Positions 5,088-20,860 of a DNA stretch of 64,000 nucleotides are shown piece by piece; position 1 is the stretch's first letter, and each line of letters starts with the position of its first letter. Origin of the DNA: an uncultured Planctomycetia bacterium (GTDB lineage Bacteria > Omnitrophota > Gorgyraeia > VGKH01 > JBHPFN01); assembly GCA_964406665.1 (NCBI GenBank), contig CAYOSQ010000004.1, positions 49,512 through 113,511 of the forward strand, written 5' to 3'. The notes below the pieces were generated by a model. That model worked only from the letters and a program-made list of their open reading frames with translations. It was not told where the DNA came from and did not search any database. The position numbers were made by a program, and so were the translations under genes.

Positions 5088-6800
5088 CTAATCGATAAGA
5101 AGTTCTTCTTGTTGGGCAACGCGGATAACTTCTGATACTGTTGTTCGGCCCTGCCTTACTTTCTCCCAACCATCTTGAAGTAAAGTTCGCATTCCTGTTT
5201 CGATAGCCTTTTGTTTGATTTGATTTGCAGGAACTCTCTCTAATACCATACTGCGGATTTCTTCATTCATTACTAAAAATTCATATACTCCCGTCCTTCC
5301 TCTGAAGCCCGTAAACTTACATGCTTCACAACCTTTTCCTTCATAAAGCACTAAATTAGATATATCCACATTTTCAATTCCTAAATTTTTTATCATTTGT
5401 TCTTGCGGCTTGACCTCAGTCTTGCAACTTGGACAAATAAGCCTAACTAATCTCTGGGCAACAAAACAATCCACCGATGAAGAAATAAGATAAGACTCAA
5501 CACCCATATCCAAAAGACGGGCAATGGCACTTGCGGCATCATTCGTATGTAGTGTAGAAAAAACCAAATGACCGGTTAAGGCAACCCTGATAGTTATCTC
5601 TGCTGTTTCAAAATCACGTACTTCTCCAACCATCATAATATCAGGGTCATGACGTAACATAGATCTTAATCCTTGAGCAAAAGTAAGCCCAATGCGTGGA
5701 TGAATCTGTATCTGAGTTATTCCCAGAAGTTGATATTCGATAGGGTCTTCAATAGTAATAATCTTTTTCTCAGCCGTATTTATTTTTGATAGACAAGCAT
5801 AAAGCGAAGTTGTCTTTCCAGAACCAGTTGGCCCGGTTACAAATATTATGCCATGAGGTTTTTTTATCAAGGCATCCATTATCTTTAAATCTTCTTTACA
5901 TAATCCTAAATCACTTAAGCTATATAACATGGTTGGAGTTAATAACCTTATTACCACACTTTCTCCGTAAGCTGTAGGTATTACAGAAACTCTTAGATCC
6001 AAATCGTTATCACCTACTCGGACTTTTATGCGGCCGTCTTGAGGTAGGCGCCTCTCTGAAATATTAAGAGAAGACATAATTTTTATTCTGGAAATTATCG
6101 CAGACTGAAACTGTTTTATGGCAGGCGGAACCTTTGCATCATAAAGGATGCCGTCGATTCGATAACGAATCTTAAGCTGATTATCATGCGGTTCAATATG
6201 AATATCAGTTGCCCTATCTCGAAAAGCCTCGAGTAAAATTTGATTTACTAGTTTACCTACTGTAGCATCATTAGCAAGCTGTTCGATATCTTCGGTTTTA
6301 GATTTTGTAGTTGCCTCAACTCCATCTGCTGTATCCATCATCTTTTCAATTGTCTCAGCTCCAACTCCATAATACTGTCTGATTGACTCAACAATATCTT
6401 TTTCTCCTCCGATAGCTGCCTTAATTTTATACCCTAACAAAAGAGAGATATCATCTAAAACTGTAACATTAAGTGGATCAGTAACAACAATAGTCAAGAG
6501 ATCATTCTCATGCTGTATTGGCATTAATTTGTAGTGATAGGCAAATTTGGCGGGAACTTTTTTTTTTACTTCAGTGTTAACAGCTATTTCTTTAATTTTG
6601 ATATAATCAATATTTAACTGTTTAGAAAGTACCGGCAGGATATCTTCTTCAGTTGCAAAACCTAACTTGATTATTGACGTTCCTAAGAAATCACCGGTTT
6701 TTTTATGTTCCTCTACAGCAGCAACTAGTTCGTCTTCGGTGATTACTCCAGCATCCACCAGCATTCTACCAAGCAAAGTAACGGTCTTTTTCTCTACCAT
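5088..6800 (-). CDS. gspE: T2SS ATPase GspE with an N-terminal MshEN-like domain
   Basis: Walker A GPTGSGKTT, a GspE/PilB-type ATPase core, and a C-terminal CxxC...CxxC tetracysteine motif. The N-terminus (LLGRMLVDAGVITEDELVAAVEEHKKTG) resembles the MshEN c-di-GMP-binding motif. Confidence 0.85.
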   Translation of the reverse strand: MVEKKTVTLLGRMLVDAGVITEDELVAAVEEHKKTGDFLGTSIIKLGFATEEDILPVLSKQLNIDYIKIKEIAVNTEVKKKVPAKFAYHYKLMPIQHENDLLTIVVTDPLNVTVLDDISLLLGYKIKAAIGGEKDIVESIRQYYGVGAETIEKMMDTADGVEATTKSKTEDIEQLANDATVGKLVNQILLEAFRDRATDIHIEPHDNQLKIRYRIDGILYDAKVPPAIKQFQSAIISRIKIMSSLNISERRLPQDGRIKVRVGDNDLDLRVSVIPTAYGESVVIRLLTPTMLYSLSDLGLCKEDLKIMDALIKKPHGIIFVTGPTGSGKTTSLYACLSKINTAEKKIITIEDPIEYQLLGITQIQIHPRIGLTFAQGLRSMLRHDPDIMMVGEVRDFETAEITIRVALTGHLVFSTLHTNDAASAIARLLDMGVESYLISSSVDCFVAQRLVRLICPSCKTEVKPQEQMIKNLGIENVDISNLVLYEGKGCEACKFTGFRGRTGVYEFLVMNEEIRSMVLERVPANQIKQKAIETGMRTLLQDGWEKVRQGRTTVSEVIRVAQQEELLID

Positions 6801-6896
6801 GCAATCCCTTTTAATAAAAGACTCTACAGAATCAAAGCTAATTTCCGTTTTGATAAAATTATACTACAATAGCATTATTAAATCAAAAAAGCTTGG

Positions 6897-7000
6897 TGGA
6901 GGTGGCGGGAATCGTTCAAGCACGATTCCATCGTTATTTTCTCATGGAATCGAGTACTCCTTATTTTACATACTGAGTGCATATTTCCGCAACTCTCCGT
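6897..7000 (-). repeat. Repeat R1 (~100 nt); its first 18 nt (6897-6914) are identical to the 3' end of the tmRNA gene
   Basis: TGGAGGTGGCGGGAATCG is identical to 9441-9458. The rest of the element is ~80% similar to R2 (7743-7845) and not similar to ssrA. Confidence 0.6.
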
Positions 7001-7118
7001 TGAGAAATATATTACTATATTTCCGTCGGAAAGTCAACGCGCATGTTTCTTATCAAAAATATGGGGGATGACGCTAAAGCGTCATCCCCCTAATAGCAAA
7101 TGCCTCAACTCTTAAAAA

Positions 7119-7340
7119 TTACTTCTTAGAGCAAAAACATTTGCCGCATACACCAACATCTCCGCAACGGCATGCTTCTCCCTTGCAACATGCTCCCTCA
7201 CATTCACATTTACCACCTACGCAGCATGTACCATCTGAGCAGGCACACTTTGATTTCAAACAACATCCTGCCTCAACGGAAAATGCAAATCCCGAAAGCA
7301 TTAGAGATGCTATAACAAAGACAATAAGTAGTCTTTTCAT
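7119..7340 (-). CDS. secreted cysteine-rich (metallothionein-like) small protein, 73 aa
   Basis: Signal peptide MKRLLIVFVIASLMLSGFAFSVEA, then a 49-aa mature region with 16 Cys in CC/CxC/CxxC arrangements. Good RBS (AAGGAGA). Confidence 0.6.
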   Translation of the reverse strand: MKRLLIVFVIASLMLSGFAFSVEAGCCLKSKCACSDGTCCVGGKCECEGACCKGEACRCGDVGVCGKCFCSKK

Positions 7341-7399
7341 GGCTATTCTCCTTAAAATTAACTATTGTGTTTTAATTTAATTCTTAACCTAAACATCAA

Positions 7400-7702
7400 T
7401 TAGGAAAGCTTGGGTGGACGGAAGACTTGACGAGCAATATCTTTTTCGTAAGTAAAAATAAGCTGATAATAAAAACTGTCTTGTGTAATAATATTAGGAA
7501 AGGTTAAATCTGAAACAATAAATGGAATCGGCTGCCCAGATGAAGAGCATATCTGCCCGCTGCTTTCACAAGAACAATTATAGCAAGAACACTCATCTTC
7601 ACAGCATGAGATAGAAAGCTCAGCTACAGATAATCCTGTGGACCAAATCATAATAAAAGCAACTATAGCTATAATAATAAACTTTTTACCCATCGTTTTC
7701 AC
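7400..7702 (-). CDS. secreted cysteine-rich small protein, 100 aa
   Basis: Signal peptide followed by SISCCEDECSCYNCSCESSGQICSS (8 Cys). RBS AGGTGA. An extended -10 (TGTGTTATACT) lies immediately upstream on the minus strand at 7727-7737. Confidence 0.55.
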   Translation of the reverse strand: MKTMGKKFIIIAIVAFIMIWSTGLSVAELSISCCEDECSCYNCSCESSGQICSSSGQPIPFIVSDLTFPNIITQDSFYYQLIFTYEKDIARQVFRPPKLS

Positions 7703-7726
7703 CTATTCCACTTAAAGTATAACACA

Positions 7727-7737
7727 TTTATAAGAAT
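7727..7737 (-). promoter_or_regulatory. extended -10 promoter element (TGtGtTATACT) upstream of the 100-aa Cys-rich peptide gene
   Basis: Sequence motif located ~25 nt upstream of the start codon. Confidence 0.35.
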
Positions 7738-7742
7738 CTAAT

Positions 7743-7845
7743 GAAGGTGACGGTAATCGTTCGAGCGCGATTCCATCGTTATTTTCTCGCAAGGAATCGA
7801 GTACTCCCTATTTTACTTATTGAGTGCGTATTTCCGCAACTTTCG
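7743..7845 (-). repeat. Repeat R2, a second copy of the ~100-nt element with a degenerate ssrA-3'-like head (GAAGGTGACGGTAATCG)
   Basis: It aligns with R1 along the whole element. It contains the same alternative-pairing segments (CGATTCC / GGAATCG / CGATTaCC). Confidence 0.55.
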
Positions 7846-7882
7846 TCAATATACATCTCTCTAAATGATCACCTCAACCTGC

Positions 7883-9298
7883 TTACCTCTTCATCTTAAA
7901 CCAGTTAGTTGATAAAGCTATTTTTGCATCGTCAATCAATGTTTTATTTCTTAAACTGTTTTTAAGCTTACGCAGTATATATTTTGGATTCAAATATACT
8001 TCCTGATAAAACTTTCTGTAGTACTCTTCTATTGTAGGCCAAGATAACACTTGGTGGTTATAAATTTCTGACGGGGTAGAATGAAATTTAAACTTCTCCC
8101 AATCATAAGTTTTAATATTTTTTTCTCTGTCAAGTTCGTTAAACAGCTCAGTTGCCGGCAAGGGAATCGTAATATTTACTTTGGCCAGATCAAGATTAAG
8201 GCTCTTGGCAAAATTTATTGTCTGTCGCATTGTCTGCTCAGTCTCTCCCGGAAGACCGAACATAAAATATCCTACAGTTTCCAACCCTGCTTTTTTAGAC
8301 CAATCTACGGCGTTCTTTACTTGCTCTAAGGTTATTCCTTTTTTTACCCTTTTTAATATCTCTTGATTCCCTGATTCGATGCCGAAATAAACACGGTAAC
8401 AGCCTGCCTTCTTCATTTTCTGCAATAACTCAAGATCTACTCTATTAACACGAATCCCTGTAAATGTACTCCAGTCAATATTGATTTTATTCAAGATAAG
8501 TAAATCACATATTTCTTTCGCCCGCTGCATATCTGTGGTAAAGCTATCATCTACTATGAAGACTTCTTTAAAACCCAGCTTTTTAACTCTTACAAACTCT
8601 TTAAGAACTCTTTGGGGTGATTTGGTTCTAAAAGTACTGCCAAAACAATTCTTATTACAAAAAATACATTGATAAACACAGCCCCGAGACGTCTCCACCC
8701 AGGCTACGGGGTTTTTTCTAGCAACAGTGGATGCAACCCTGTATCTATTTATTTCGTAAAGACTATACTCTGGATAAGGCAAGACATCTAAGTCTTCTAT
8801 AAATTCTTTCCTTTCATTGACCACAATCTTGCCATTTTGTTTAAATGCTATTCCTTTTAAATCTGATAAATTTTTGCCTTCAACTATTTCCTGGATGACA
8901 AAATCACCTTCTCCGATAACCGCAATATCTGAGGAAGTCTCTTTTAGCGACGATTCCGGAAACGATGAAGCATGCGCACCCCCGATTACAATAATTATTT
9001 TTTCATTAATCTCTTTGATCTTCTGGGAAATTCTTGCTGCCTCTTTGATTAAAGGAGTTACAAAAGTAATCCCTACGAAATCTGGTTTAAATCTTTCTAG
9101 TATCTTGAAAAAATCTTCATCTTCGTAAATATTAAAATCGAATATCTCCACCTCGTGGCCTTTTTCCATTAAGCTTCCTGCTAAGCAAGCAAGGGCCAAC
9201 GAACAGGTCGACGGAGCGATCCCTTTTGTAATAGTCTTTTCGTAAAACCTCTCAAAGGGTAAATCTAACAGTAATATTCTTTTAGGTTTGAGCGTCAT
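7883..9298 (-). CDS. B12-binding domain radical SAM protein (class B rSAM)
   Basis: N-terminal cobalamin-binding-like domain and a CxxxCxxC motif (CVYQCIFC). It has no C-terminal SPASM-type Cys cluster. Confidence 0.75.
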   Translation of the reverse strand: MTLKPKRILLLDLPFERFYEKTITKGIAPSTCSLALACLAGSLMEKGHEVEIFDFNIYEDEDFFKILERFKPDFVGITFVTPLIKEAARISQKIKEINEKIIIVIGGAHASSFPESSLKETSSDIAVIGEGDFVIQEIVEGKNLSDLKGIAFKQNGKIVVNERKEFIEDLDVLPYPEYSLYEINRYRVASTVARKNPVAWVETSRGCVYQCIFCNKNCFGSTFRTKSPQRVLKEFVRVKKLGFKEVFIVDDSFTTDMQRAKEICDLLILNKINIDWSTFTGIRVNRVDLELLQKMKKAGCYRVYFGIESGNQEILKRVKKGITLEQVKNAVDWSKKAGLETVGYFMFGLPGETEQTMRQTINFAKSLNLDLAKVNITIPLPATELFNELDREKNIKTYDWEKFKFHSTPSEIYNHQVLSWPTIEEYYRKFYQEVYLNPKYILRKLKNSLRNKTLIDDAKIALSTNWFKMKR

Positions 9299-9440
9299 TT
9301 TATTTTCTGAATTAATACAATAGAATTACTCCTCTAAAACCAAAAGCAAAGTCCCGATTTAACTTCGAGAAAGAAGCATTTTGACGAAGAAGACTCGTTC
9401 CTGCAAAGCTCAAGACGAAAGTTCTTAAGCTAACTAAAAG

Positions 9441-9834
9441 TGGAGGTGGCGGGAATCGAACCCGCGTCCTTAGATTACGCAGCAAACGCCTCTACATGTT
9501 TAGTCTATATTCTGTTTGTCGTCTTGGCTCACTCCCATAGACAGGATTAAACCAAAACCAGCCTTTTAAATTTTCATCTTAAGCCCAAAGGCAAAACTCA
9601 AGACTATCCTGCCGTCCCCTCGCGGGGACGTGCACCAACTTAACCCGCAGGCAAGCTAAGCGATGGCCTTGTCTAATTTATGTTAGACTAGGACTTTTTC
9701 AGCCAAGATTTCCTCAGCTTCTGCAACTACGTTGTAGTCTGCATTTGTATTGTGCAAGGTGTTTAACGAGGCCTCCCTGCAACCTCGACATGCGTACACT
9801 TACCCGATAATCTAAATCGAACCCTTTCACCCCC
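9441..9834 (-). ncRNA. ssrA: tmRNA (ssrA)
   Basis: 3' end GGACGCGGGTTCGATTCCCGCCACCTCCA has a T-arm plus acceptor. 5' end GGGGGTGAAAGGGTTCGATTTAG pairs with the 3' acceptor strand. Directly downstream of smpB. A possible tag ORF reads GCA GAC TAC AAC...GTC TAA, giving (A)DYNVVAEAEEILAEKVLV (tentative). The exact 5' end is uncertain and may overlap the smpB stop codon by a few nt. Confidence 0.75.
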
Positions 9835-10279
9835 TTCTTCTTAAAGCACGTTTAACTTCTAAATCTACTTGTTTCTTTTTTAAATCTCGACGCTTATCAT
9901 ACAATCTTTTTCCCTTAACCAAAGCCAGCTCAACCTTTGCACGCCCATTTTTAAAATAAAGTTTAAGCGGCACCAGAGAAAGTCCTTTCTGCGATACTTT
10001 ATCCTCTAGGCGTTTAATTTCCTTTTTATGTAAAAGTAGCCTACGATTTCTTGTCGGCTCAAGATTAAAAAAGCTAGCTTCCAAATAAGGACTTATATGA
10101 ACATTATACAACCAAACTTCTGACGATTCAATTCTAGCAAAACTATCTTTTAAATTAGCCCGAGAATCTCTTAGAGATTTTACCTCCGGCCCCTTTAGCT
10201 CTATCCCGCATTCTAAAGACTCGATTATCGCATAATCCCTAAATGCGCTGCTATTTTTCGCGATAAGTTTCTCGCCCAT
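9827..10279 (-). CDS. smpB: SsrA-binding protein SmpB
   Basis: 150 aa with the SmpB signature region (...GIELKGPEVKSLR...LLHKKEI...) and adjacent to ssrA. Confidence 0.85.
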   Translation of the reverse strand: MGEKLIAKNSSAFRDYAIIESLECGIELKGPEVKSLRDSRANLKDSFARIESSEVWLYNVHISPYLEASFFNLEPTRNRRLLLHKKEIKRLEDKVSQKGLSLVPLKLYFKNGRAKVELALVKGKRLYDKRRDLKKKQVDLEVKRALRRRG

Positions 10280-10290
10280 TAAAAAACCCT

Positions 10291-11250
10291 TTATTTAAAA
10301 AAAGTTAAAAACTGAAAAAGCATCAAGAATATTGGTATAGTAATAATACTTCCGACATGCGTGAAAAATACCCCGTGGCTTACATATACATCTTCAATAT
10401 CATGGTGTCGAGCTATTAATGATAGTGATGTTGCCGAAGGAACCGCCAGCTCTATGAGAATAAGAAATCCCAATAATTGAGGAACCCTTACCAGCGTTAA
10501 CAAAAGCAAGGCACATAACGGTAAAATAATCAATTTAAGCGTACACACAGAAACAATAGCTTTTTTATCTATGTTCTGCAGGCTCACCTGAGCTAAATTT
10601 GCGCCGATTGCAATCATAGCAAGAAAAAGAGTCCAGCTGCCAACGGTGTGCGCGATATCTATGACAATATCAGACACATACTGCTTACAACCAAATGATA
10701 CACCAACCAAAGATATAACCGTAGCGATCACCGGCGGACTAAATAGACTACTTATCCTTAAATCCCTTAATTTACCACCGATGAGATACCGCGTTCCATA
10801 CGACCATACGATTAGATTAAACCCAATTAGAAACAAAAAGATCAGTACGAACAGCTCCCCCGCTACTTCAGAAGAAAAAAGCGTCGCAACAAGAATAAGC
10901 GGTAAGTAGCCAGAATTTTGAAACGTAACAAGGCTTACAAACTGTCTTCGCTGTGCCTGCGATTGTTTTTCTTTTCTAAAACCCAAAAAAGCTTTCGCCA
11001 CAACAAAACCAAAAAGCGTGATTGCAATACTTATAAGTGGATATATCCACCACAGAGAATACTGCTTAAAATCAAATTTACGCAGTATCTCAGAAAAGAT
11101 TAAAAGCGGCAACGTGATATAAATAATAATTGTTGCAAGCGCCCGATTTACTTTTTGATTAAGTATCTTAACCTTAGCAAAGATATAGCCAATACTTCCT
11201 AGAGCAGCAATCTTCGCCATAGCCAAAAGAACAGTCTGAAAAAATACCAT
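10291..11250 (-). CDS. AEC-family (auxin efflux carrier/Mem_trans) membrane transporter
   Basis: 319 aa polytopic membrane protein with an AEC-like N-terminus (MVFFQTVLLAMAKIAALGSIGYIF). Confidence 0.55.
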   Translation of the reverse strand: MVFFQTVLLAMAKIAALGSIGYIFAKVKILNQKVNRALATIIIYITLPLLIFSEILRKFDFKQYSLWWIYPLISIAITLFGFVVAKAFLGFRKEKQSQAQRRQFVSLVTFQNSGYLPLILVATLFSSEVAGELFVLIFLFLIGFNLIVWSYGTRYLIGGKLRDLRISSLFSPPVIATVISLVGVSFGCKQYVSDIVIDIAHTVGSWTLFLAMIAIGANLAQVSLQNIDKKAIVSVCTLKLIILPLCALLLLTLVRVPQLLGFLILIELAVPSATSLSLIARHHDIEDVYVSHGVFFTHVGSIITIPIFLMLFQFLTFFK

Positions 11251-11466
11251 AAATTTCCCCTTTACTAGTGGAGTTATTATACACTAATCCATATCCTAAG
11301 AGCAATTTATATTTAGCGATACTGAGTAAATTTTGTTTTCTAATATTTACGAATGTGTTGACCGTTCTTAAATTATACAGTATACTTTTATATCGTGAAG
11401 AAAATGCCGAAGTGGCCCCAGACGCCTTTGGCGTCAGGGACTATCCGGCGAATCTGGCAAGCTAAT

Positions 11467-11550
11467 GCCGAAGTGGTGAAACTGGCATACACGCAGCGTT
11501 CAGGGCGCTGTTCCTTTACGGGATTGTGGGTTCGACTCCCACCTTCGGCA
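11467..11550 (+). tRNA. tRNA-Leu (anticodon CAG), 84 nt with a long variable arm
   Basis: Hand-folded. Acceptor GCCGAAG/CTTCGGC, anticodon stem-loop CAGCG-TTCAGGG-CGCTG, long variable arm, T-arm GTGGG-TTCGACT-CCCAC. Similar to E. coli tRNA-Leu. Confidence 0.8.
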
Positions 11551-11626
11551 CTTAATTTACCTGTTCTCGTCAAGAAAACCTTCAACCTACCCTCCTTTTG
11601 GCAGTAGAATTGGCAGTATTTCTCCA

Positions 11627-12688
11627 TTAAAACTTTACATCCAACCCTAACTCTTTATCCATCTGCTCTACAATTCTATCGGTAGAATGCGTGTACCATT
11701 CATCGATTGTCCTCGGATCTTTGTGTCCGGTTATCTTAGCGATGTTGATAGAGCTATATCCTCTATCTTTTAGATAAGTAACAACGAAATGTCTGAGCAA
11801 ATGAGGATAATAATTGCGTGTAATACCAAGTTCTTTCATCGCTCTCTTGAGAATCTTGCGGATAGTATCTTTTCCGATGGAAATTCCTTTCAACCTGCCT
11901 TGGTCATCTTTAACTTTGCTCGGAAATAACCAACCAAAAGGACTGTAGAGCTTATGGCGCTTCAAGTAAAGGATATGCTCATTCAACACGATACAATCCA
12001 TCTTAGCCAGCTTCTTAACGCCTTCTTCTTTGTCTTTGTGCTTATATAGATATATTCGTTCATTATCCAATTCAACATCATTGATTTTGAGAGTTCTAAT
12101 TTCATTACGCCTACTTCCGAATCTCGCCATCAGATAGATATATGCGAAGTATTGAAACCTATTTGCTCTGATCCAATCCAATACTCTCATCATTTCATCT
12201 TTTGGTGGTGGTCGCTTTATCTTCTTTTCTAACTTAGGATATTTGACTTCAGAGAATGGATTCTTTACATTTCTAAAGCTGACTTTCCAAAACTCTCTCA
12301 GCAATCTAATAGAATACTTTGCTGTTGAAGGACTATAGCTCTGCAACATATGCTTCTTGAAATCCTCTCCAATCTCTTTTGTGATCCGGTGCAAAGGCAA
12401 TGCAGGATATTTCTTCTGCAAGAAAGCACTAAAGTATCTTTTAACATCGTTATATCGATCGGTTGAAGCAGGAGCGAGCGTCTTTCTGTTTACGAAAATA
12501 TCGAAACTCTCGAAGAAGGAGCTTTGCTTACTCATAGCGCACTCGCCTTCACGCTCAAGCTGTGCAGCGTATTCTTTGGCATCTTTCTTGCGTAAATAGT
12601 CTATTTTGCTGACAGTCGTTGAATGTTCTTTACCGTCAACGCGCCAACATATACGCCAACTCTTTTTTCTGTCAACTACCCAAGCCAT
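11627..12688 (-). CDS. int: tyrosine-type site-specific integrase
   Basis: 353 aa with a C-terminal catalytic region including the HLLRH...Y motif. It lies immediately next to the tRNA-Leu 3' end, in the orientation typical of island integrases. Confidence 0.85.
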   Translation of the reverse strand: MAWVVDRKKSWRICWRVDGKEHSTTVSKIDYLRKKDAKEYAAQLEREGECAMSKQSSFFESFDIFVNRKTLAPASTDRYNDVKRYFSAFLQKKYPALPLHRITKEIGEDFKKHMLQSYSPSTAKYSIRLLREFWKVSFRNVKNPFSEVKYPKLEKKIKRPPPKDEMMRVLDWIRANRFQYFAYIYLMARFGSRRNEIRTLKINDVELDNERIYLYKHKDKEEGVKKLAKMDCIVLNEHILYLKRHKLYSPFGWLFPSKVKDDQGRLKGISIGKDTIRKILKRAMKELGITRNYYPHLLRHFVVTYLKDRGYSSINIAKITGHKDPRTIDEWYTHSTDRIVEQMDKELGLDVKF

Positions 12689-12690
12689 AT

Positions 12691-12861
12691 TACTTGTGTC
12701 CGTTCTTTCTAAAGTCTTGAATTACTTTGTCAGGTTCATATCTCGGATGCTTGCCGATCATAATTGTATCGATCCTGCCTTGCCTTCTGTAGTAATCAAT
12801 AGTTGAGACAGGAATCTTGAGAAGTTTAGATAATTCGAATTTATCAACTAACTGTTTCATA
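12691..12861 (-). CDS. excisionase/AlpA-like HTH DNA-binding protein (56 aa)
   Basis: Hand-translated: MKQLVDKFELSKLLKIPVSTIDYYRRQGRIDTIMIGKHPRYEPDKVIQDFRKNGHK. It is below the ORF-track size cutoff and sits directly upstream of int. Coordinates may be off by 1-2 nt. Confidence 0.5.
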
Positions 12862-12979
12862 CTGGTCTACCTCCACTAAATACTCAGGTTTAGGATAATG
12901 CTTCTCCCATTTTTCTTTAACTGACTGCTTTGATCGTGGCGTATCAAATTCTTTAATCCGGATCGCTTCTTCGCCACGC

Positions 12980-13540
12980 TTAACGACGACCTTGCAATAC
13001 ACCGGCTTTCTCCCTGCTACGATCCCATCTACGGTAATAACCTGATTTTCTTCGCACCTTGCCATCTTTTTTGCCAAGAGGCCTGCCGAGCTTCTTGCCT
13101 TGGCTTCTCGCTCGCTGTAGGCCGGATTTGGTCCTCTCAATGATTCTCTTGCGCTCCTGCGCCGCTACCCAAGCATAGAAGGCAACCAGAACCTCTCCCA
13201 AGCCATCATCTGTAAAATCGAACATTGGCTCTTGCAGACTTTTAATACCTACCTTATTTCTTCTTATTCTTTTGATGTATCCCAAGGTATTAAACATACC
13301 TTCGCGAGAGAATCTGTCTAACGCCCATACAAGGATTAAATCAAACTTGCGCCTCTCTGCATCATGGAGCATGCGAAGAAAGTCTTTGCGATCTCCATTG
13401 CCTCCTGAAGCGTAATCAACATACTCATCAACGATTTCGCCCTGCAATGCATTTGCATAATCCCTTAGCGCTTGAAGCTGATTCTCAGGACTTTGGCTGC
13501 CGTTGTCCTTCGAAACACGACTATAAATTGCTATTTTCAT
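12980..13540 (-). CDS. serine recombinase (resolvase/invertase family)
   Basis: N-terminal catalytic domain MKIAIYSRVSKDNGSQSPENQ with the catalytic Ser. The C-terminus is basic and atypical, with no clear HTH. An ORF at 12844..13140 overlaps it in another frame. Confidence 0.7.
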   Translation of the reverse strand: MKIAIYSRVSKDNGSQSPENQLQALRDYANALQGEIVDEYVDYASGGNGDRKDFLRMLHDAERRKFDLILVWALDRFSREGMFNTLGYIKRIRRNKVGIKSLQEPMFDFTDDGLGEVLVAFYAWVAAQERKRIIERTKSGLQRARSQGKKLGRPLGKKDGKVRRKSGYYRRWDRSREKAGVLQGRR

Positions 13541-13554
13541 AATTACCTCCTTGC

Positions 13555-13761
13555 TTATGGAAATAAAGTTTTAGTATCCTGCTGCAAGATCTCAGCGACT
13601 TGCTGTCTTACAGCCGAGTTAGGAATTTCTTTGCCTGTCTCCCAATCAGAAACTGTCTTTTGCCCTACACCAAGCAGTCTACCGAGTTCCCATTGAGAAA
13701 GCCGTGCGCGCTTCCGGTACAGACTCAACATATTGTCGTATCGCTCGATTCTGTATTGCAT
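13555..13761 (-). CDS. Xre/Cro-CI family HTH transcriptional regulator (68 aa)
   Basis: HTH region LSQWELGRLLGVGQKTVSDWETG. It is divergent from the second Xre gene. Confidence 0.7.
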   Translation of the reverse strand: MQYRIERYDNMLSLYRKRARLSQWELGRLLGVGQKTVSDWETGKEIPNSAVRQQVAEILQQDTKTLFP

Positions 13762-13933
13762 CTGTTCCCTCCTTCTAATTTTATTTATTAGATTGCCAAG
13801 TTAAAAAATATATGCCCTTGCGCTTGTTCTTTCTTACCTACGAATGTAAGTATATACTACTTCAAAATAAAAGTCAAGTTTTATTTTTATCTTTTTTCTT
13901 GTATATGTAAGTAAGTATTGGTAAACTACTTCT

Positions 13934-14248
13934 ATGAGAACATCAAAATACCCAAAGAAAGCTGTAACGATCGGACAAAAGATTCGCAAAGCAAGGATGG
14001 ATCGGAAAAAAGATAAAGACCTGCTCGATGTTGCGAATAAAGTTGGCATAACCGAAAGCTATTTATCGCGGATTGAAGCAGATAAGAATTTGCCCTCAAT
14101 GGATGTTGCAGCGAAACTTGTCGAAGAACTCGGAATAAAGAAAGACGATATCATTCCTGAACTAATGCAAATTAAAATTGCTACCCTCTCAAAATCAACA
14201 GTCCACATCAACGCAAAGCATATCACTTTCAAAAAACCACGCGTCTAA
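13934..14248 (+). CDS. Xre family HTH transcriptional regulator (104 aa)
   Basis: HTH region LLDVANKVGITESYLSRIEADKNLPSMD. It forms a divergent pair with 13555..13761 across an intergenic region carrying TGTAAGTA repeats. Confidence 0.7.
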   Translation: MRTSKYPKKAVTIGQKIRKARMDRKKDKDLLDVANKVGITESYLSRIEADKNLPSMDVAAKLVEELGIKKDDIIPELMQIKIATLSKSTVHINAKHITFKKPRV

Positions 14249-14296
14249 AAGTTTACATCTTGCCAAACAGCCAAAACAGAGATAAAATAAGTCTTA

Positions 14297-14566
14297 ATGA
14301 AAACTCTCGTAGAAGGTGTCGATTTCGTCTACTTCTCCCCCTACCCTGCCTGCAAAGAGCCCTACAAAGTCGATCCCAAGGAAGTAAATCCGGTTTTCAA
14401 AGATATTTTGCATAAAGCATGGCTTGAGGCGGAAGCTCAGCTTCCCTCATGGGAGTTTCCTGAATACGATGTACCAATTTTACAGAAAAAGATCTTACAA
14501 GAACAATATGGGATCAGCTTGCGGACTGTTCATGAGCTAAATCCTGAGATGCCGGTAGGATATTAA
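14297..14566 (+). CDS. hypothetical protein (89 aa)
   Basis: Element cargo. No recognisable motif. Confidence 0.4.
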   Translation: MKTLVEGVDFVYFSPYPACKEPYKVDPKEVNPVFKDILHKAWLEAEAQLPSWEFPEYDVPILQKKILQEQYGISLRTVHELNPEMPVGY

Positions 14567-14576
14567 GGAGTCTTGC

Positions 14577-15005
14577 TTGAATATTAAATTCTTTAAAGCG
14601 TGTAATACCTGTAAGGCACGATATCTCCTATATCATCTCAAATCAGATTGTTTATTTGCCCAAGGAGTATTAAAACAGTTAGACGAAGTCAGTGAGAAAA
14701 CTGGACAAGAAATTGTTGACTCGACAAAAGATATGGATGCAAAGGCAACTTTTTTAGAATGGAGCAGATGGAAAAGTGCGCCATTCATAGTAATCACTTC
14801 AGCGTTTGCAATAGGAGTCCCCTTGCTTTGGGTGCAAAAACTTGAAGCGGTAGCTTGGATTCTTATAGTATTTTCAGTTATTTCCTTTATGCTTTACGCC
14901 ATCTTTCTTTCACAAGGTGGCTTCGACCAACTATATAAGCTACTCATTGTTAATGATATATCAAAAAGGGTAAATCCAACTAAACAAAATAAAAATGATG
15001 GCTGA
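14577..15005 (+). CDS. hypothetical membrane protein (142 aa, 2 predicted TM)
   Basis: N-terminal Cys-containing region and two hydrophobic helices. Confidence 0.45.
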   Translation: MNIKFFKACNTCKARYLLYHLKSDCLFAQGVLKQLDEVSEKTGQEIVDSTKDMDAKATFLEWSRWKSAPFIVITSAFAIGVPLLWVQKLEAVAWILIVFSVISFMLYAIFLSQGGFDQLYKLLIVNDISKRVNPTKQNKNDG

Positions 15006-15282
15006 GAGTATTTTATTTCTTTGGGGTCTTTATTATTTTGTCTGCAAGGTCGATTATAAACGCTTTAAAGATACTTGGGTAAATCTTCTTAAAGGCATAG
15101 GGTTTTTGTTGTGCGGAAAAGTAATGGGAATCTTCATGACTTCTCTCTATGCAGGTGGTGCGGATAGCTATAGGGTAGATATGGTTTTCGGCTTGCCATT
15201 ACTTATATGGACTATTGTAAAAGTAGCAAAGCTATTCAATGAAAGAGATGAGTTAAAAAGAAGTCGCAATAAGGAGAAATAA
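14995..15282 (+). CDS. hypothetical small membrane protein (95 aa)
   Basis: Hydrophobic segments; overlaps its neighbours in an operon-like arrangement. Confidence 0.4.
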   Translation: MMAESILFLWGLYYFVCKVDYKRFKDTWVNLLKGIGFLLCGKVMGIFMTSLYAGGADSYRVDMVFGLPLLIWTIVKVAKLFNERDELKRSRNKEK

Positions 15283-15283
15283 A

Positions 15284-15778
15284 ATGAGAAAACTATTACT
15301 TGTTTTAATGTGTTTGATGTTGGCTGGGTGTGCGAGTGGTCAAGTCGTAAAACTTTCGCCTGATACTTATATAATTTCACGCACCAGCTCAGCAGGAGCA
15401 TTCACGAATATGGCTCGGTTAAAAACCAGAGTTATTCAGGATGCAAATGATTTTGCCGAGAAACAAGACAAGGTTGCTATCCCCCTATCATACGATTGGC
15501 ATCGACCAGCTCAAGGATTTCCTACGGTTGAATATCAATTTAGGGTAGTAGATAAGGATGATCCTGAGGCAAAGCGAGCACATTTAGTCCCAAGACCTGA
15601 TATTACAATTCAAAGAGATGATTCAATTGATGCAGATATAGATATTGATATGAAAGATGTGACCGAAGAAAGCTCTGATCTTTATACAGAGTTAATGAAG
15701 TTAGATGATTTGAGAGCACGAGGTATTCTAACCGATAAGGAATTTCAAATCCAAAAAGAGAAATTGCTTAATAGATAA
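15284..15778 (+). CDS. lipoprotein with a C-terminal SHOCT-like domain
   Basis: Lipobox LMLAGCASG. The C-terminus LMKLDDLRARGILTDKEFQIQKEKLLNR matches the SHOCT short C-terminal motif. Confidence 0.55.
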   Translation: MRKLLLVLMCLMLAGCASGQVVKLSPDTYIISRTSSAGAFTNMARLKTRVIQDANDFAEKQDKVAIPLSYDWHRPAQGFPTVEYQFRVVDKDDPEAKRAHLVPRPDITIQRDDSIDADIDIDMKDVTEESSDLYTELMKLDDLRARGILTDKEFQIQKEKLLNR

Positions 15779-15789
15779 GGAGAAATGAA

Positions 15790-15960
15790 ATGAAAAAAGA
15801 AACGCTTTTACAGATTATATTATTGCTGGTAGTAAGCGGTATAATCTTTGTTATTGTCTACCCCAAATATGATATTGCCTGCACATATGGAACCTGCTTT
15901 AAGCTAAACAAATTTACTGGTAACTCAACCTATTACTTGCAAGGCGAGTGGCATAAATAA
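15790..15960 (+). CDS. small membrane protein (56 aa, below ORF-track cutoff)
   Basis: Hand-translated: MKKETLLQIILLLVVSGIIFVIVYPKYDIACTYGTCFKLNKFTGNSTYYLQGEWHK. Confidence 0.35.
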   Translation: MKKETLLQIILLLVVSGIIFVIVYPKYDIACTYGTCFKLNKFTGNSTYYLQGEWHK

Positions 15961-16106
15961 AATGCCAAGAGGCGTAAGAAACGATGAGCTTTGGGAAGCT
16001 TATAAGAAAACATTTGGCTGTGGTGATAAGGGCTTAACTTTCATCGTTGTTTTTATACTACTGCTTGGATTTATTTTAGTTGTTTTATTATAAGAAAGGA
16101 GTAATT

Positions 16107-16451
16107 ATGAAGTTATTAGTTGTTTTAATCTGTGTGTTGTTGATTGGACTTGCTGTTGCATTTGCTCAAAATCCTGTTATTGAAACCAGAAAATACTTAA
16201 ATCAAGAAACAGAAAGAATACACGAGAAAGCGAAGGGAATAGCAGAAGAATTAAAAAAGCAGATGGTTCCAATAGTAATAAGCACACAAGAAATTTCAGC
16301 AGGCGAGGTAATACAAGCAGAAATGCTTGAAACAGTAATGATTCATAAAAAGATTGAAGGAAGTTTTACTGCTCCTGAACAGGTTATAGGAAAACGAGCC
16401 ATTGTAGATATTAAAAAAGTTGTGCCCATTGAAGCTAAAAATATAGAATAA
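16107..16451 (+). CDS. secreted hypothetical protein (the start is probably the internal ATG at 16107 rather than 16080)
   Basis: RBS AAGGAG lies upstream of MKLLVVLICVLLIGLAVAFA, a signal peptide. Confidence 0.45.
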   Translation: MKLLVVLICVLLIGLAVAFAQNPVIETRKYLNQETERIHEKAKGIAEELKKQMVPIVISTQEISAGEVIQAEMLETVMIHKKIEGSFTAPEQVIGKRAIVDIKKVVPIEAKNIE

Positions 16452-16456
16452 ATTTA

Positions 16457-16490
16457 GGGCGACAGGTGCAAACTTAAAAACCCATCGCCC
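16457..16490. terminator. hairpin between convergent genes; weak bidirectional terminator candidate
   Basis: GGGCGA...TCGCCC stem; the U-tract is weak. Confidence 0.3.
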
Positions 16491-16543
16491 CTTGTGTAGA
16501 TAGATGCCGCTACCCACACTCCTCTGGTTAGGAACCTGAGAAA

Positions 16544-17275
16544 TTAAAGTTCTTTATCTAACTCTGCTTGCACTTTCTTATCAAACTCCCTAGAAGACTT
16601 ATTAGGTGATGATGATATAACCTTCTTAGGGATTCTAATATCCTCTCTAACTGTTTTATACCTATCTACAACAGGTTGGTTTTGCCTTTCCCTACGAGCC
16701 TTTTCTTCTTTAACAGCTTCTTTCATTGTCATTTCTTTTAAGGCAGCCATATCCCATTTCTTCCGTAGCTGGTCATTGACTCTTTGTCTTCTAGCATGAA
16801 CATCTGGATGGTCACCTTTATGTAGCTTATATCCTGCCATCTTGGAATAAGATTCCATTGTCGGATGCTCATCGTGCTCTGCTTGCAATCTATCTATTTC
16901 TCTTTGATGTTCTATATCAGTTGTATCAGAATATGGTAATCCAGCCGCTGATTCAGCTTCAGCTTGTTCCTCTACTTTTTTTAAAGCAGTCTCAAGCCTA
17001 CCATTTCTACGAAGGTCTTCTCCAAGTTTACGACCAATCTCTCTTGATTGCTTATAACCCTCATAATACTTTATAAGTTTATCAGTTAATTTTTTAGGAG
17101 CAGTGCCTTCTCTAACAGCATTTACAAGACTTGGATTTTCCGCAAACTCTTTATTCAATTCATGTTCAAGCGTTGCTACCTTATCTACTATCTTCCTACT
17201 TTCTTCATTATGATTTTTTGCAAGAAGCAATATTGCTCTGGTATATTTTTGTTCTTTAGTCCAAGTCATTTGCAA
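16544..17275 (-). CDS. hypothetical coiled-coil protein (243 aa; possible TTG start, internal ATG at 17267-17269)
   Basis: Charged, heptad-like sequence. Element cargo. Confidence 0.45.
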   Translation of the reverse strand: MQMTWTKEQKYTRAILLLAKNHNEESRKIVDKVATLEHELNKEFAENPSLVNAVREGTAPKKLTDKLIKYYEGYKQSREIGRKLGEDLRRNGRLETALKKVEEQAEAESAAGLPYSDTTDIEHQREIDRLQAEHDEHPTMESYSKMAGYKLHKGDHPDVHARRQRVNDQLRKKWDMAALKEMTMKEAVKEEKARRERQNQPVVDRYKTVREDIRIPKKVISSSPNKSSREFDKKVQAELDKEL

Positions 17276-17398
17276 TCACCCCAGACATCTTTCGTAGGTT
17301 CTGTATGATTTACCTTTGACAACATTTCTGCTGCATTGCTTGCCCAGCTTCTGTTATTACTTCGCTTTGGTTTTTGTTTCTTACCTTTACCTTTGCCT

Positions 17399-17821
17399 TT
17401 ACTCATCTTCAATTCTCCTTTCTACTTCTTCATTAAACTTCTCCATGGATTTTGGTGTTTTTATTTTTTTATTGAACCTTATATCATCTTCAGTTTCTTG
17501 TCGCTGGATATTCTTTTTAGCATCATATGCTTCACGAGCATCTCTTTCTTTCTTTTCTTTCTCTACCGTATCCTTCAAGTGCTTCTCTTTAAGATGCTTC
17601 ATATCTTGCTTCTGTTGTTCTTCCCTTTCCGACTGTTGTCTTTTAAAATATTCATCAACATCATCACCCTGCATAGCCTTTAAGACTTCTGCACCATCTT
17701 CCATATCGTGGGTTTCTTTGAACTTATCCAATGCTTCTTTAACATCAACTTGTTTTTCTTCAGGAGTTGATTCAGGTGAGACCTCTTTTCCTTCATCTTC
17801 CATCTTAATTCCCTCCTTCAA
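17399..17821 (-). CDS. hypothetical highly charged (E/K/D-rich) protein, 140 aa
   Basis: Extreme charge bias; roughly half the residues are E, D or K. Confidence 0.4.
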   Translation of the reverse strand: MKEGIKMEDEGKEVSPESTPEEKQVDVKEALDKFKETHDMEDGAEVLKAMQGDDVDEYFKRQQSEREEQQKQDMKHLKEKHLKDTVEKEKKERDAREAYDAKKNIQRQETEDDIRFNKKIKTPKSMEKFNEEVERRIEDE

Positions 17822-17833
17822 GGTTTTGTTTCA

Positions 17834-18043
17834 TCACGAGAACTTGCTGCCTTTGTGATGATATGAGCATATATTTGTTCCGTCAAAAACTGCTACTCCA
17901 CATTTGCCTGCATATCCTGTCTCAAATTGACACCACTTATACGGTTTCATGTCATTCGTATACTGAATCTGAGCGAACTCATTTAGATCTTCTTGAAGAT
18001 TATCATCAATTCTCCCTTCTGTTCTCGTTGTTGTTGTTTTCAT
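17834..18043 (-). CDS. hypothetical small protein with a Cys/His cluster (possible zinc ribbon)
   Basis: CQFETGYAGKCGVAVFDGTNICSYHH. Confidence 0.35.
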   Translation of the reverse strand: MKTTTTRTEGRIDDNLQEDLNEFAQIQYTNDMKPYKWCQFETGYAGKCGVAVFDGTNICSYHHKGSKFS

Positions 18044-18148
18044 GCCATTCCTCCTTCCTTTGATGAGTAAACAATCGTTCGATTGTTATGTACTGTCTTT
18101 CCTCGCGTAAAAACCTCTCGAAATAGAGGGGGAGGATTGTTTATCCAT

Positions 18149-18535
18149 TTATTTACTGTAAGTCCTCTTTTCAAGAATGACTCTTTCGACCTTTTCGAGT
18201 CTTTGCTCGATATTCTCGATCTCTCTGCTTTTTAGAACATATTCAATAATGCACTTAGAAGCTGAGAGCCGGACTTCTGCCCTTGGAGCTTTAATCAGCT
18301 CAATCAATTCGTCAACTGCCTGCGAAGCTGCCGACTTAAGCGTATTCAAGGCGCTATTAACAACAACATCGCGCTTAGACCGCAATTCCGCCTTGAATGC
18401 GTCATTCTTCAGCCACTTATGGAGAGTAGCTCTTGAGACGCTTGATCGCCTTGATGCTTCTTCAATCGAAGGAGAGGCAATTATATGAGCAATCGCCAAC
18501 AACTGCCTTCTCTTGATTTTTCTCTCTTTTTCCAT
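18149..18535 (-). CDS. HTH DNA-binding protein, possibly a terminase small subunit-like protein
   Basis: N-terminal HTH (SRRSSVSRATLHKWLKN) followed by a helical C-terminus, an organisation reminiscent of TerS proteins of phage satellites. Confidence 0.35.
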   Translation of the reverse strand: MEKERKIKRRQLLAIAHIIASPSIEEASRRSSVSRATLHKWLKNDAFKAELRSKRDVVVNSALNTLKSAASQAVDELIELIKAPRAEVRLSASKCIIEYVLKSREIENIEQRLEKVERVILEKRTYSK

Positions 18536-18559
18536 GTCATCCTCCTCAAATTGTCGATT

Positions 18560-18988
18560 TTATATCAATTCTGTCTCAATACCGGCAACACTATCAATAA
18601 TCGCCTGCATGTATTTGTCAAAATCCTTATCCTTTTTTCTGATTGTCTTAGTATCAACAGGATCGCCGATATTATATTCTTTCACTTTGCCATCAACCAT
18701 AATGGGCCGTAAGCGCATAAAAACTCGAGGTTCGTAGTCTTTTCCGTATCTCATCCTTAAACGCCTTAAAACGCCTTCTTTGTCCTGATCATCGTAGAAA
18801 CCGAGTTCCGGTGGCGCGTCTTGCAACCTTATCGTGCTTTCAACCTTCTTCAACCGTTTTCCTACAGACACAAAATACCTCCTTTTGTTTAGCCAATAAT
18901 CATGTTGCGGAAATCGTACACTCTTTATATATATGTGTACGATTGTACGATAATGATACAACCAACATCCACAGAGAGAAGCATTCAA
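18560..18988 (-). CDS. hypothetical protein (142 aa)
   Basis: Element cargo. No motif recognised. Confidence 0.35.
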   Translation of the reverse strand: MNASLCGCWLYHYRTIVHIYIKSVRFPQHDYWLNKRRYFVSVGKRLKKVESTIRLQDAPPELGFYDDQDKEGVLRRLRMRYGKDYEPRVFMRLRPIMVDGKVKEYNIGDPVDTKTIRKKDKDFDKYMQAIIDSVAGIETELI

Positions 18989-19081
18989 CGAAATGCTTCT
19001 TCTCTGAGTAGGTTTTGTGAGGAATAGTACTAACTACCTCTTTTGTACGACCGTACGATGCCTTCATTTTACGAACAAATA

Positions 19082-20128: not shown

Positions 20129-20129
20129 A

Positions 20130-20684
20130 TCATCCTCCTGCCAGTTGTGCGACTGCGGTCTTGAAATCGCAATCTTTTAATAGTTGCATAAAACTGATGG
20201 CATCCCCATGAACACCGCAGCCAAAGCAATGAAACTTGTTGTTCTCATCTATCATAAACGAAGCAGTTTTCTCTCCATGGAACGGACAGAGCGCATATTG
20301 ACGCTTACCGTTCCGGCGTAGCTTCTCAAAGCTATATATACTTGTAATAGGCGTTTGCTTGGCAATCTCTTTACTGCGCTCAAGATCATATGTCTTTTGC
20401 TTATACTGCTTATTAGATAAGAGCAACTGCAGGCGCTTGAGTCTTTTAAGTTGCTTGCGTGCCTCGTTAAATCTGCAGTCTAAGATGTCTATTACCTCAA
20501 GCCAAAACCACTTGGAGAATGGATCTTTTATCACAGCGATCTTCTTAACAAATGGCTGGATTTCCTCGACATAGCTCTTTTCTTTGACAACTAACCATTC
20601 TTTGATCTTCATAGGAACAATCTCTTTTGCTTCCGGAAAGATCTTGAGTAGCTCAATATCTGTTGGATAATTAGCGTAGTACAT
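20130..20684 (-). CDS. CHC2 zinc-finger (DnaG-type zinc-binding) domain protein
   Basis: C-terminal CPFHGEKTASFMIDENNKFHCFGCGVHGDAISFMQL is the canonical primase zinc-finger. No TOPRIM domain is visible. Its stop is 1 nt from the helicase start. Confidence 0.65.
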   Translation of the reverse strand: MYYANYPTDIELLKIFPEAKEIVPMKIKEWLVVKEKSYVEEIQPFVKKIAVIKDPFSKWFWLEVIDILDCRFNEARKQLKRLKRLQLLLSNKQYKQKTYDLERSKEIAKQTPITSIYSFEKLRRNGKRQYALCPFHGEKTASFMIDENNKFHCFGCGVHGDAISFMQLLKDCDFKTAVAQLAGG

Positions 20685-20845
20685 TGAATCAACTCCTTTG
20701 GCAGTAAAATGGCAGTAAAGTATACCAGAACCTGCTCTTTTTAGCTTTTTCTACTGCAAGGAATTTTAACTACTTTGAAGAATCTATAGACGAGAGATAC
20801 AAACTGCGGTATAATTGTGAAGCGTGTTGAAAGCATGGAGTTATT

Positions 20846-20860
20846 CTCCCACCTTCGGCA
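20846..20860 (+). repeat. attR-like 15-bp direct repeat of the tRNA-Leu 3' end (CTCCCACCTTCGGCA)
   Basis: Identical to 11536-11550. It marks the distal boundary of the integrated element. Confidence 0.7.

Follow-up and report, generated by a model that had tools for sequence, protein, structure and literature searches.

Direct repeats behind the tmRNA gene of an uncultivated Omnitrophota bacterium probably mark two stacked mini-cassettes that lack an integrase gene

We analyzed a 64,000-nucleotide (nt) stretch of DNA (contig CAYOSQ010000004.1, positions 49,512 to 113,511; here called the window) from an uncultivated marine bacterium of the Omnitrophota, an affiliation indicated by homologs of its SmpB protein. 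The analysis centers on two similar elements of about 100 nt, R1 and R2, located 3' of the transfer-messenger RNA (tmRNA) gene ssrA. An initial annotation had pointed out the two copies and had proposed that they could be remnants of two tandem integrations, small tRNA-like noncoding RNAs, or cis-regulatory leaders. Our results favor the first proposal: R1 and R2 are probably attR-type attachment (att) junctions of two stacked mini-cassettes without an integrase gene, inserted at the 3' end of ssrA. This view is carried by an exact copy of the ssrA core, an arm unrelated to ssrA, cargo that looks foreign, a gene interval that varies between relatives, and a polymorphism located exactly at the core. 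The two repeats, which at first sight resemble paired regulatory RNAs of a tRNA-like type, were most likely left behind by site-specific insertion that took place repeatedly at the tmRNA gene.

R1 and R2 are direct repeats with 87-89% identity over approximately 105 nt, above the 80% estimated initially. They align in two gap-free blocks (6897-6943/7742-7788 with 89% identity and 6937-6997/7784-7844 with 87% identity), between which there is a 2-nt indel. At one end of R1, 19 of 19 plus-strand positions (6896-6914) agree with the reverse-complemented 3' end of ssrA (9440-9458), with a chance expectation of 0. The corresponding copy in R2 (7741-7759) matches at 15 of 19 positions (79%), and both copies are in direct orientation, 3' of ssrA. 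No further copy of this core besides those in ssrA, R1, and R2 was found in the window. The match to ssrA starts within the T-loop (TTCGATT), where CGATT follows TT; this loop lies between the stem strands GCGGG and CCCGC. The approximately 85 nt preceding the core are common to R1 and R2 and do not align to ssrA. Such an arrangement corresponds to a displaced fragment of the target gene joined to an element arm (attR type). The ssrA-like heads described initially were thus borne out. In contrast, the T-arm-like hairpin described with them is not homologous to the T arm of tmRNA: CGATTCC (the 3' half of the T-loop plus a T-stem strand) pairs with a new partner, GGAATCG, that does not come from ssrA, and the register of this core-adjacent hairpin is shifted by 5 nt from the true T-stem GCGGG/CCCGC.

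The sequence that follows the core also bears on its origin. In the working ssrA gene, the core is followed by TTTT, showing that CCA is not encoded there. In R1, the core runs on as CCA and AGCTTTTTT, which resembles the native ssrA end of the relative L013 and of the haplotype L110 (see below). In both L013 and L110, ssrA ends with an encoded CCA followed by a T run, and CCA is also encoded in the relative L023. The presence of CCA in R1 and its absence from the working gene fit the view that R1 holds the displaced original terminus, while the present terminus was supplied by an element.

The most direct evidence for att junctions is an exact switch of sister contigs at the 19-20-nt core. 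Near-identical contigs occur in several metagenome assemblies from JGI and ENA. One of them, L110, shows 100% identity to the window between 11898 and 9440, where the core ends, and then continues with 72 unrelated nt. This tail consists of CA, a terminator hairpin (GGGCGATTTCAAATACGAAGTCGCC), and T6, so that the contig reads ssrA-core-CACCTTGTTTTAAGAAAAGGGCGA. For a second contig, L006, identity to the window is 100% over the core, x (the spacer between ssrA and the next gene), a radical S-adenosylmethionine (SAM) gene, R2, two genes for small Cys-rich proteins, R1, and the beginning of gspE. No ssrA lies upstream of the core in L006. Instead, a near-consensus promoter is followed by CGGAGAGTTGCGGAAATACGCTCAAT, and the contig reads TTGACAATAAAACAGTTATGTTGTAAACTGTTTCTCGACGGAGAGTTGCGGAAATACGCTCAAT-core-x. 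We designated this upstream element R3; it is a third variant of R, short in comparison, that shares the 5' arm and lacks approximately 63 nt of the inner part. Three more contigs start at the core. L110 originates from the same sample as L003 (JGI 3300009128), and L006 from JGI 3300007511. The simplest reading of these contigs would be a second haplotype in which ssrA-core is followed by a third cassette, then by R3-core and x, and from there by the radical-SAM gene and the remaining features. The occurrence of R3 and of an alternative ssrA flank within one population suggests present or recent activity of the site. R1 and R2 themselves were unchanged in all aligned contigs of this population (L001-L009, L106-L109, L111, L112, and L116-L119), and the sister contigs therefore added no covariation data. 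The GspE product of the window has no exact record elsewhere, and the window gspE differs by two bases from the sister contigs.

The interval between ssrA and gspE differed in content in every relative examined (L022, L013, L023, and L010). In L022 (SmpB identity, 70%), the order smpB-ssrA...gspE-gspF-gspG is kept, without ssrA repeats, and ssrA and gspE are separated by a prepilin-like gene, a CNNM/CBS gene, and a 63-amino-acid (aa) open reading frame (ORF). The ssrA gene is followed by pilMN in L013, by cold-shock and RNA recognition motif (RRM) genes in L023, and by GIY-YIG and glycosyltransferase genes in L010. A scan of genome contigs based on SmpB gave just distant relatives (61% identity or less; L045, mentioned below, is one of them) and no close context, and the contexts of the gene for the 73-aa Cys-rich protein revealed no additional haplotypes.

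The cargo of both putative cassettes looks acquired. Among the homologs of the radical-SAM protein, identity falls from 100% directly to 68%. According to the source labels, the best homologs belong to Nitrospirota, DPANN archaea, and Candidatus Falkowbacteria, and the one labeled Omnitrophota is 48% identical. Homologs with 62-68% identity are encoded in glycosyltransferase/polysaccharide clusters, sometimes in tandem with a paralog and never beside Cys-rich peptides. The 97-aa Cys-rich protein is an ORFan, its sole match among 5.8 billion proteins being itself. For the 73-aa Cys-rich protein, 37 distant relatives of 69-81 aa were detected, and neither of the two proteins matched a Pfam or NCBIfam family. 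The genes of cassettes A and B (defined below) thus do not form a conserved functional pair, which argues against R2 as an intra-operon regulator. The radical-SAM gene is isolated at this locus, and its best NCBIfam similarities, to HpnJ and BchE, are far under the cutoffs. Approximately 25% of the 73-aa protein is Cys (in CC, CxC, and CxxxC runs), and the 97-aa protein contains a CCEDECSCYNCSC block. A hydrophobic N-terminal stretch in both, read by eye, was taken as a putative signal peptide.

We also inspected the arm that precedes the core. The inverted repeat GGAATCG-N8-CGATTCC occurs in the window at R1 and R2 only (expected, 0). In addition, the core recurs in inverted and imperfect form at the 5' end of each R (GGAGAGTTGCGGAAAT), reading GGAG-GTGGCGGGAAT on the opposite strand. 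This inverted copy matches the core at 13 of 15 positions with one gap (p of approximately 0.009) and is kept in R1, R2, and R3. Each R thus has the form of a long imperfect palindrome; in R3, the palindrome is the same but its loop is short. Promoter-like hexamers are present upstream of R1, R2, R3, and a partial homolog in L010, in the same alignment columns in each case, and are near consensus in L006 and L010. The L010 homolog comprises the promoter and the first approximately 25 nt of the arm, and is 88.6% identical to L006 over 88 nt. Since SmpB of the two genomes is just 81% identical, this level of identity in noncoding DNA suggests that the promoter-arm segment is itself mobile by horizontal transfer or strongly constrained.

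Based on these data, we propose the following history for the locus. Cassette B (approximately 0.85 kb) would have inserted first, at an empty site in which the ssrA-core was directly joined to CAAGCTTTTTTGATTT. The original ssrA terminus, consisting of core, CCA, T run, and the gspE promoter, would thereby have been displaced and would now form the right-hand part of R1. Cassette A (approximately 1.7 kb) would have been added later between ssrA and B, creating R2 and supplying the present ssrA terminus, with x as its probable ssrA-proximal arm. In part of the population, a third cassette would be located between ssrA and A. Neither cassette encodes a site-specific recombinase, and this enzyme would thus have been supplied in trans; the cassettes would behave like cis-mobilizable elements in an array built by accretion. 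The symmetry of the arm, formed by the GGAATCG/CGATTCC repeats and the inverted core, probably reflects recombinase-binding elements combined with an outward promoter, and the promoter-like hexamers at the outer edge of the arm may drive transcription out of the cassette.

The features of the locus are listed in Table 1. All genes of this region are located on the minus strand, in the order ssrA-core, x, radical-SAM gene, R2, two Cys-rich genes, R1, and gspE; gspE is followed by gspF, gspG, and pseudopilin genes. As stated initially, R2 lies 5' of a Cys-rich peptide gene and R1 lies 5' of gspE. The distance from R2 to the ATG of the 97-aa ORF is 48 nt, with a TGTTATACT motif in between (a GTG at 7702 would give 100 aa), and the distance from R1 to gspE is 96 nt.

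Table 1. Features of the ssrA-gspE region, listed in the direction of the minus strand (positions are those of the window)
Feature	Positions	Strand	Remarks
smpB	9827-10279	minus	directly upstream of ssrA
ssrA (tmRNA gene), proposed integration target; tag peptide AEAEEILAEKVLV	9438-9834	minus	ARAGORN; Rfam RF00023, 164.7 bits, full-length
Core copy O-a in working ssrA, CGATTCCCGCCACCTCCAC	9440-9458	minus	3' part of T-loop, 3' strand of T-stem, 3' strand of acceptor
Segment x, 140-nt spacer between ssrA and radical-SAM gene	9299-9439	minus	same x also after R3 in contig L006
Weak terminator-like hairpin within x	9370-9352	minus
B12-binding radical SAM enzyme, 471 aa, cargo of proposed cassette A	7883-9298	minus	Pfam PF02310 and PF04055
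Promoter-like TTGAGG-18-TATATT, reads into R2	7848-7877	minus	aligned with hexamers of R1, R3, and L010
R2: arm 7760-7849 and degenerate core 7741-7759	7741-7849	minus	putative junction of cassettes A and B
Cys-rich protein, 97 aa, gene 1 of proposed cassette B	7400-7693	minus	translation
Cys-rich protein, 73 aa, gene 2 of proposed cassette B	7119-7340	minus	translation
Strong intrinsic-terminator-like hairpin, 12 pairs (9 G-C), then T run	7063-7090	minus	closes the genes of cassette B
Promoter-like TTGACT-17-TAATAT, reads into R1	7009-7037	minus
R1: arm 6915-7003, exact core 6896-6914, and CA	6894-7003	minus	ACCA thus encoded
Promoter-like TTGATT-17-TATAAT (10/12), after R1 core, 5' of gspE	6858-6886	minus	putative native flank
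gspE/pilB-type ATPase, first gene of conserved secretion/pilus cluster	5088-6800	minus	beyond the array

Several observations weigh against the proposal of inserted cassettes. No integrase or integrase remnant was found between 6896 and 9440, where the supported ORFs are just the radical-SAM gene and the two small Cys-rich genes; no Phage_integrase or Resolvase domain was detected, and the gaps are too short to conceal one. An autonomous relative with the same arm was not found in pattern scans of viral, metagenome, and genome-contig collections, in which metagenome coverage of this population was poor. The integrase of a neighboring island in a tRNA-Leu gene was considered as the enzyme acting on R and dropped: R does not contain the arm repeats of this integrase (TGGCAGTA), which makes it an improbable helper. 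The G+C content of the cassettes is the same as that of their flanks. The sequences after the three core copies show no significant mutual similarity, although the preceding arms are related. The argument that R1 holds the displaced terminus is weakened by L010, the closest relative, which likewise lacks an encoded CCA. In L010, moreover, the promoter-arm homolog is located upstream of a glycosyltransferase gene and has no ssrA core, so that at least this portion of the arm also occurs where there is no att site. Finally, the core polymorphism shows recombination between core copies but does not prove the action of a site-specific enzyme; plain deletion between short direct repeats could also produce it.

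Segment x provides a further point of this kind. Its positions 9351-9398 (48 nt) are 79% identical to a sequence located 200 nt 3' of ssrA in L013, which would be surprising for a purely foreign x. Two readings offer themselves: a partly native x, or elements of this family that carry sequence typical of the lineage 3' of ssrA. The second possibility is plausible, because the elements must supply a working ssrA terminus. We also considered the 48-nt segment as a member of a dispersed repeat with the motif GCTTYGCAGGRAC; this was dropped, since the other matches in the window are in apparent coding regions. A motif family (CTTCGYCAAARTGCTTC and GCTTYGCAGGRAC) was noted 3' of ssrA in the window (9351-9398), in L013 (11040-11087), and in L010 (11262-11470). 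In L013, it was also found upstream of tRNA-Leu, and it may be a lineage-specific flank of stable-RNA genes, with a terminator, a processing signal, or an element arm as candidate functions.

Searches for more copies of R extended the set by R3 in the sister contig and the partial homolog in L010. Using nhmmer with profiles of R and of promoter plus arm, the window and 119 loci yielded R1, R2, R3, and the L010 homolog, and nothing more; in the window, R1 and R2 remained the only copies. Exact and degenerate R patterns matched nothing in the viral collection, the metagenome contigs, or the genome contigs; since the metagenome collection misses known JGI contigs of the same strain, this is a weak negative. 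BLAST of R1 against phage genomes returned one chance-level match of 38 nt.

The next question is whether R could instead be a transcribed, structured RNA module, a 5' leader or small RNA with a tRNA-like end, that regulates or insulates the downstream gene (Cys-rich or gspE). Such an RNA would start at the upstream promoter-like site and comprise a long terminal helix and two competing internal hairpins, with the ssrA-like end as part of its design and not a scar. We consider this unlikely. The switch-like arrangement reported initially is real in R1: on the minus strand, the three segments CGATTCCAT, ATGGAATCG, and CGATTCC (A, B, and C) form alternative hairpins A:B and B:C of equal energy (-11.7 and -11.6 kcal/mol). 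In R2, the hairpins are weaker (-9.2 and -7.0 kcal/mol), because the outer segments are substituted (CGATTCCTT and CGATTAC), and B:C is damaged. No U tract follows the B:C hairpin, and a terminator scan called no minus-strand terminator within R1 or R2. Accordingly, a riboswitch- or attenuator-like leader found little support.

Folding gave a similar picture. R1 folds better than shuffled sequences (z = -3.8), whereas R2 does not (z = -1.3). In a consensus fold, none of the 27 pairs is lost in R1 or R2, one pair of the terminal helix shows a double change from G-C to A-U, and just 3 of the 14 columns that vary between R1 and R2 are in paired positions; the two sequences used to test this fold were also those from which it had been derived. 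The terminal helix of R1 ends in ACCA and is followed by a U run, but the U run begins 7 nt past the helix. R2 has no U run, and in R3 the helix is followed by ACUUUU. Read from the sequence, the acceptor-like helix of R has A3-U instead of G3·U, and its loop lacks a T-loop sequence. In Rfam, R1 and R2 gave no hit at the gathering threshold and, at E values up to 10, just a chance-level 13-bit match to RalA, that is, no family. ARAGORN made no call on R1 or R2, its sole calls being the true tmRNA and tRNA-Leu. With no copies found outside this population either, the idea of a tRNA-like RNA family has little in its favor. The column-aligned hexamers upstream of R1, R2, R3, and the L010 homolog are compatible with a transcribed module; however, promoter-like sites are no more common in this AT-rich region than in shuffled sequence (8 found versus 8.9 expected from 50 shuffles). 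An RNA module also leaves unexplained the 19/19 match to ssrA and the exact contig switch at the core edge. A role of R as a leader or small RNA is conceivable as a secondary function, and nothing requires one. A leader in L010 that would form the same terminal helix with another 3' strand was considered and dropped, as the minimum-energy fold does not contain this helix.

A mobile alternative is that the cassettes move via a folded single strand. Integron attC sites and the attP site of CTX phage are imperfect inverted repeats of approximately 60-150 nt with bulged bases, and integron-type cassettes without an integrase gene are stacked at one site. By analogy, a host or helper tyrosine recombinase would act on a hairpin formed by the inverted core and the core, which are 11-70 nt apart and bulged, and the ssrA end would resemble attI. 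The inverted core copy in all three R variants and the integrase-less cassettes of 0.85-1.7 kb, stacked in the same direction at one fixed site, agree with this mechanism, and single-stranded DNA folding gave a modest signal against shuffles for the R1 plus strand (z = -2.8) and for R3 (z = -2.3). R2 gave no such signal, and reading both strands revealed no attC boxes (RYYYAAC...GTTRRRY) at the ends of R1 or R2. The nearest and sole nearby tyrosine recombinase (11627-12688), which belongs to the tRNA-Leu island, scores 46 bits against the integron integrase model TIGR02249, with a cutoff of 265. The array contains just two or three cassettes, and ordinary double-strand recombination between attP and attB would give the same layout. 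Overall, the locus is alike in layout only: IntI, R'/R'' boxes, and a dif-like site are absent, and the core is 19 nt of the tmRNA gene. We thus regard mobilization through a folded strand as improbable. It is equally doubtful that the ssrA 3' end is the docking site of an integron-like system with tiny integrase-less cassettes, hairpin sites of approximately 50-105 nt, outward promoters, and a recombinase in trans that would add and excise the cassettes beside ssrA, perhaps via a folded single strand; were it so, the newest cassette would be placed directly behind the strongly transcribed ssrA gene.

Least probable is an origin without any mobile element, by local duplication or gene conversion of a native promoter/terminator module containing ssrA-derived sequence, with the genes in between acquired otherwise: the uniform G+C content of the region, the missing integrase, the resemblance of part of x to the native ssrA flank of L013, and the L010 homolog of the arm start in a non-att context are in line with it, but it does not explain why each repeat ends with the ssrA core in ssrA orientation, why each delimits unrelated foreign or ORFan cargo, or why the haplotypes differ exactly at the core.

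The attR-junction reading places the locus among known elements. Islands in tRNA and tmRNA genes split their target, which is regenerated by the element, and the displaced 3' fragment marks the far end; ssrA is a favored target, and tandem arrays are common (Williams 2002 and 2003). The att-scar pair most likely represents an instance of this known event that is unusually small, and it extends the picture of ssrA islands, accretion, and tycheposons to an uncultivated marine Omnitrophota lineage. Islander-type islands (Islander database, PMC4383910) are by definition found via an integrase gene inside the island. The window shows a regenerated target, a displaced 3' direct repeat, a start in the T-loop, and interrupted synteny, but no integrase inside the island.

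The closest parallel is provided by the ssrA islands of Dehalococcoides (2011, PMC3146451). There, a 20-bp repeat marks insertion in the T-loop's middle, the islands are arranged in tandem directly 3' of a single-copy ssrA, and a conserved motif without a match to ssrA is located just upstream of each repeat (PMC3146451). Approximately half of these islands have no integration module and were interpreted as cis-mobilizable elements added by accretion (PMC3146451). The likeness is almost point for point: ssrA 3' repeats, non-ssrA sequence upstream of them, a start in the T-loop, tandem arrangement, and no integration module. The differences concern the host (Omnitrophota here, Chloroflexi there), the size, and the arm. 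Dehalococcoides islands measure at least several kb, and an integration module with a serine recombinase (DsiB) is present in many of them, whereas the cassettes proposed here have 0.85 and 1.7 kb and were found to contain no recombinase of any type. The conserved arm is approximately 85 nt long, internally palindromic, and starts with an inverted core, in contrast to the 15-bp motif of Dehalococcoides.

Cis-mobilizable elements (CIMEs) and site-specific accretion were first described for the integrative and conjugative elements (ICEs) ICESt1 and ICESt3 of Streptococcus thermophilus. The cassettes are CIME-like in that DNA flanked by att sequences and lacking recombination or transfer genes is arranged in tandem at one site, with a third junction, R3-core-x, in L006. 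CIMEs are, however, defined relative to a known helper ICE with the same att sites, and no such helper was identified here. In tycheposons of marine Prochlorococcus, newcomers stack at tRNA or tmRNA genes, older elements are pushed outward, and partial-tRNA scars are left (bioRxiv 10.1101/2020.12.28.424599). Cultures are heterogeneous for excision and tandem junctions, and the elements encode a tyrosine recombinase together with, in most cases, a module for replication (bioRxiv 10.1101/2020.12.28.424599). A marine streamlined genome, successive integrations, and degenerate remnants are shared features; the tycheposon build itself is found here in the neighboring tRNA-Leu island and not in the ssrA cassettes.

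The small units (0.85 and 1.7 kb, with one or two genes and without a recombinase) and the long palindromic, promoter-bearing arm are unusual, as is the evidence from sister contigs for turnover of the site in a natural population. If a recombinase acting in trans and more cassettes were found, the locus would represent a natural platform for gene capture, compact in size and placed at a gene that is conserved universally. Otherwise, R1 and R2 would be ordinary decaying att scars.

The tRNA-Leu island offers a canonical case in the same window and serves as an internal control. It occupies approximately 9.3 kb (11536-20860) in a tRNA-Leu(CAG) gene (11467-11551, plus strand) and is bordered by 15-bp direct repeats (CTCCCACCTTCGGCA) at 11536-11550 and 20846-20860. 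Its tyrosine integrase gene (11627-12688, minus strand) adjoins the tRNA gene, and the TGGCAGTA arm repeats are present in pairs at both ends (11599/11611 and 20699/20710). The cargo comprises a small serine recombinase (12980-13540), helix-turn-helix (HTH) regulators, an AAA_25 ATPase (19082-20128), and a DnaG-type, primase-like zinc ribbon protein (PF01807; 20130-20684). This build resembles that of a tycheposon or a small mobilizable element. L013 and L023 do not contain the island, and there a Maf/M48 gene abuts the tRNA gene.

Minor observations were made at the ssrA flanks of other genomes. In L110, a hairpin (GGCGATTTCAAATACGAA(G/A)TCGCC) followed by a T run is located at 2480-2510, approximately 20 nt after ssrA, and is identical at 29 of 30 positions to L045 1111-1140. 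L045 is a distant metagenome-assembled genome labeled Planctomycetia (SmpB identity, 56%), in which repeat-rich DNA and a gene of the Schlafen/AlbA_2 type come after the hairpin. The similarity suggests a horizontally shared module at the ssrA 3' end; the pattern of the L110 tail hairpin had no match in the viral collection. L010 contains small GIY-YIG-domain ORFs on both sides of ssrA (10532-10762 in the smpB/ssrA gap and 11476-11721 just after ssrA), which are possible genes of a homing-endonuclease-like type sharing this hot spot. In L013, three strong hairpins are lined up after ssrA (10829-10960); the first spans the encoded CCA end (CCACCATCTTTTTC...GAAAAAGATGGTGG), and the second reuses TGGTGG...CCACCA. 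Finally, a partial copy of the tRNA-Leu 5' end (ATGCCGAAGTGG) is present in the window at 11405-11420, approximately 60 nt upstream of the real tRNA-Leu gene, and a similar copy (GCCGAAGTG) was detected upstream of the tRNA-Leu gene of L013.

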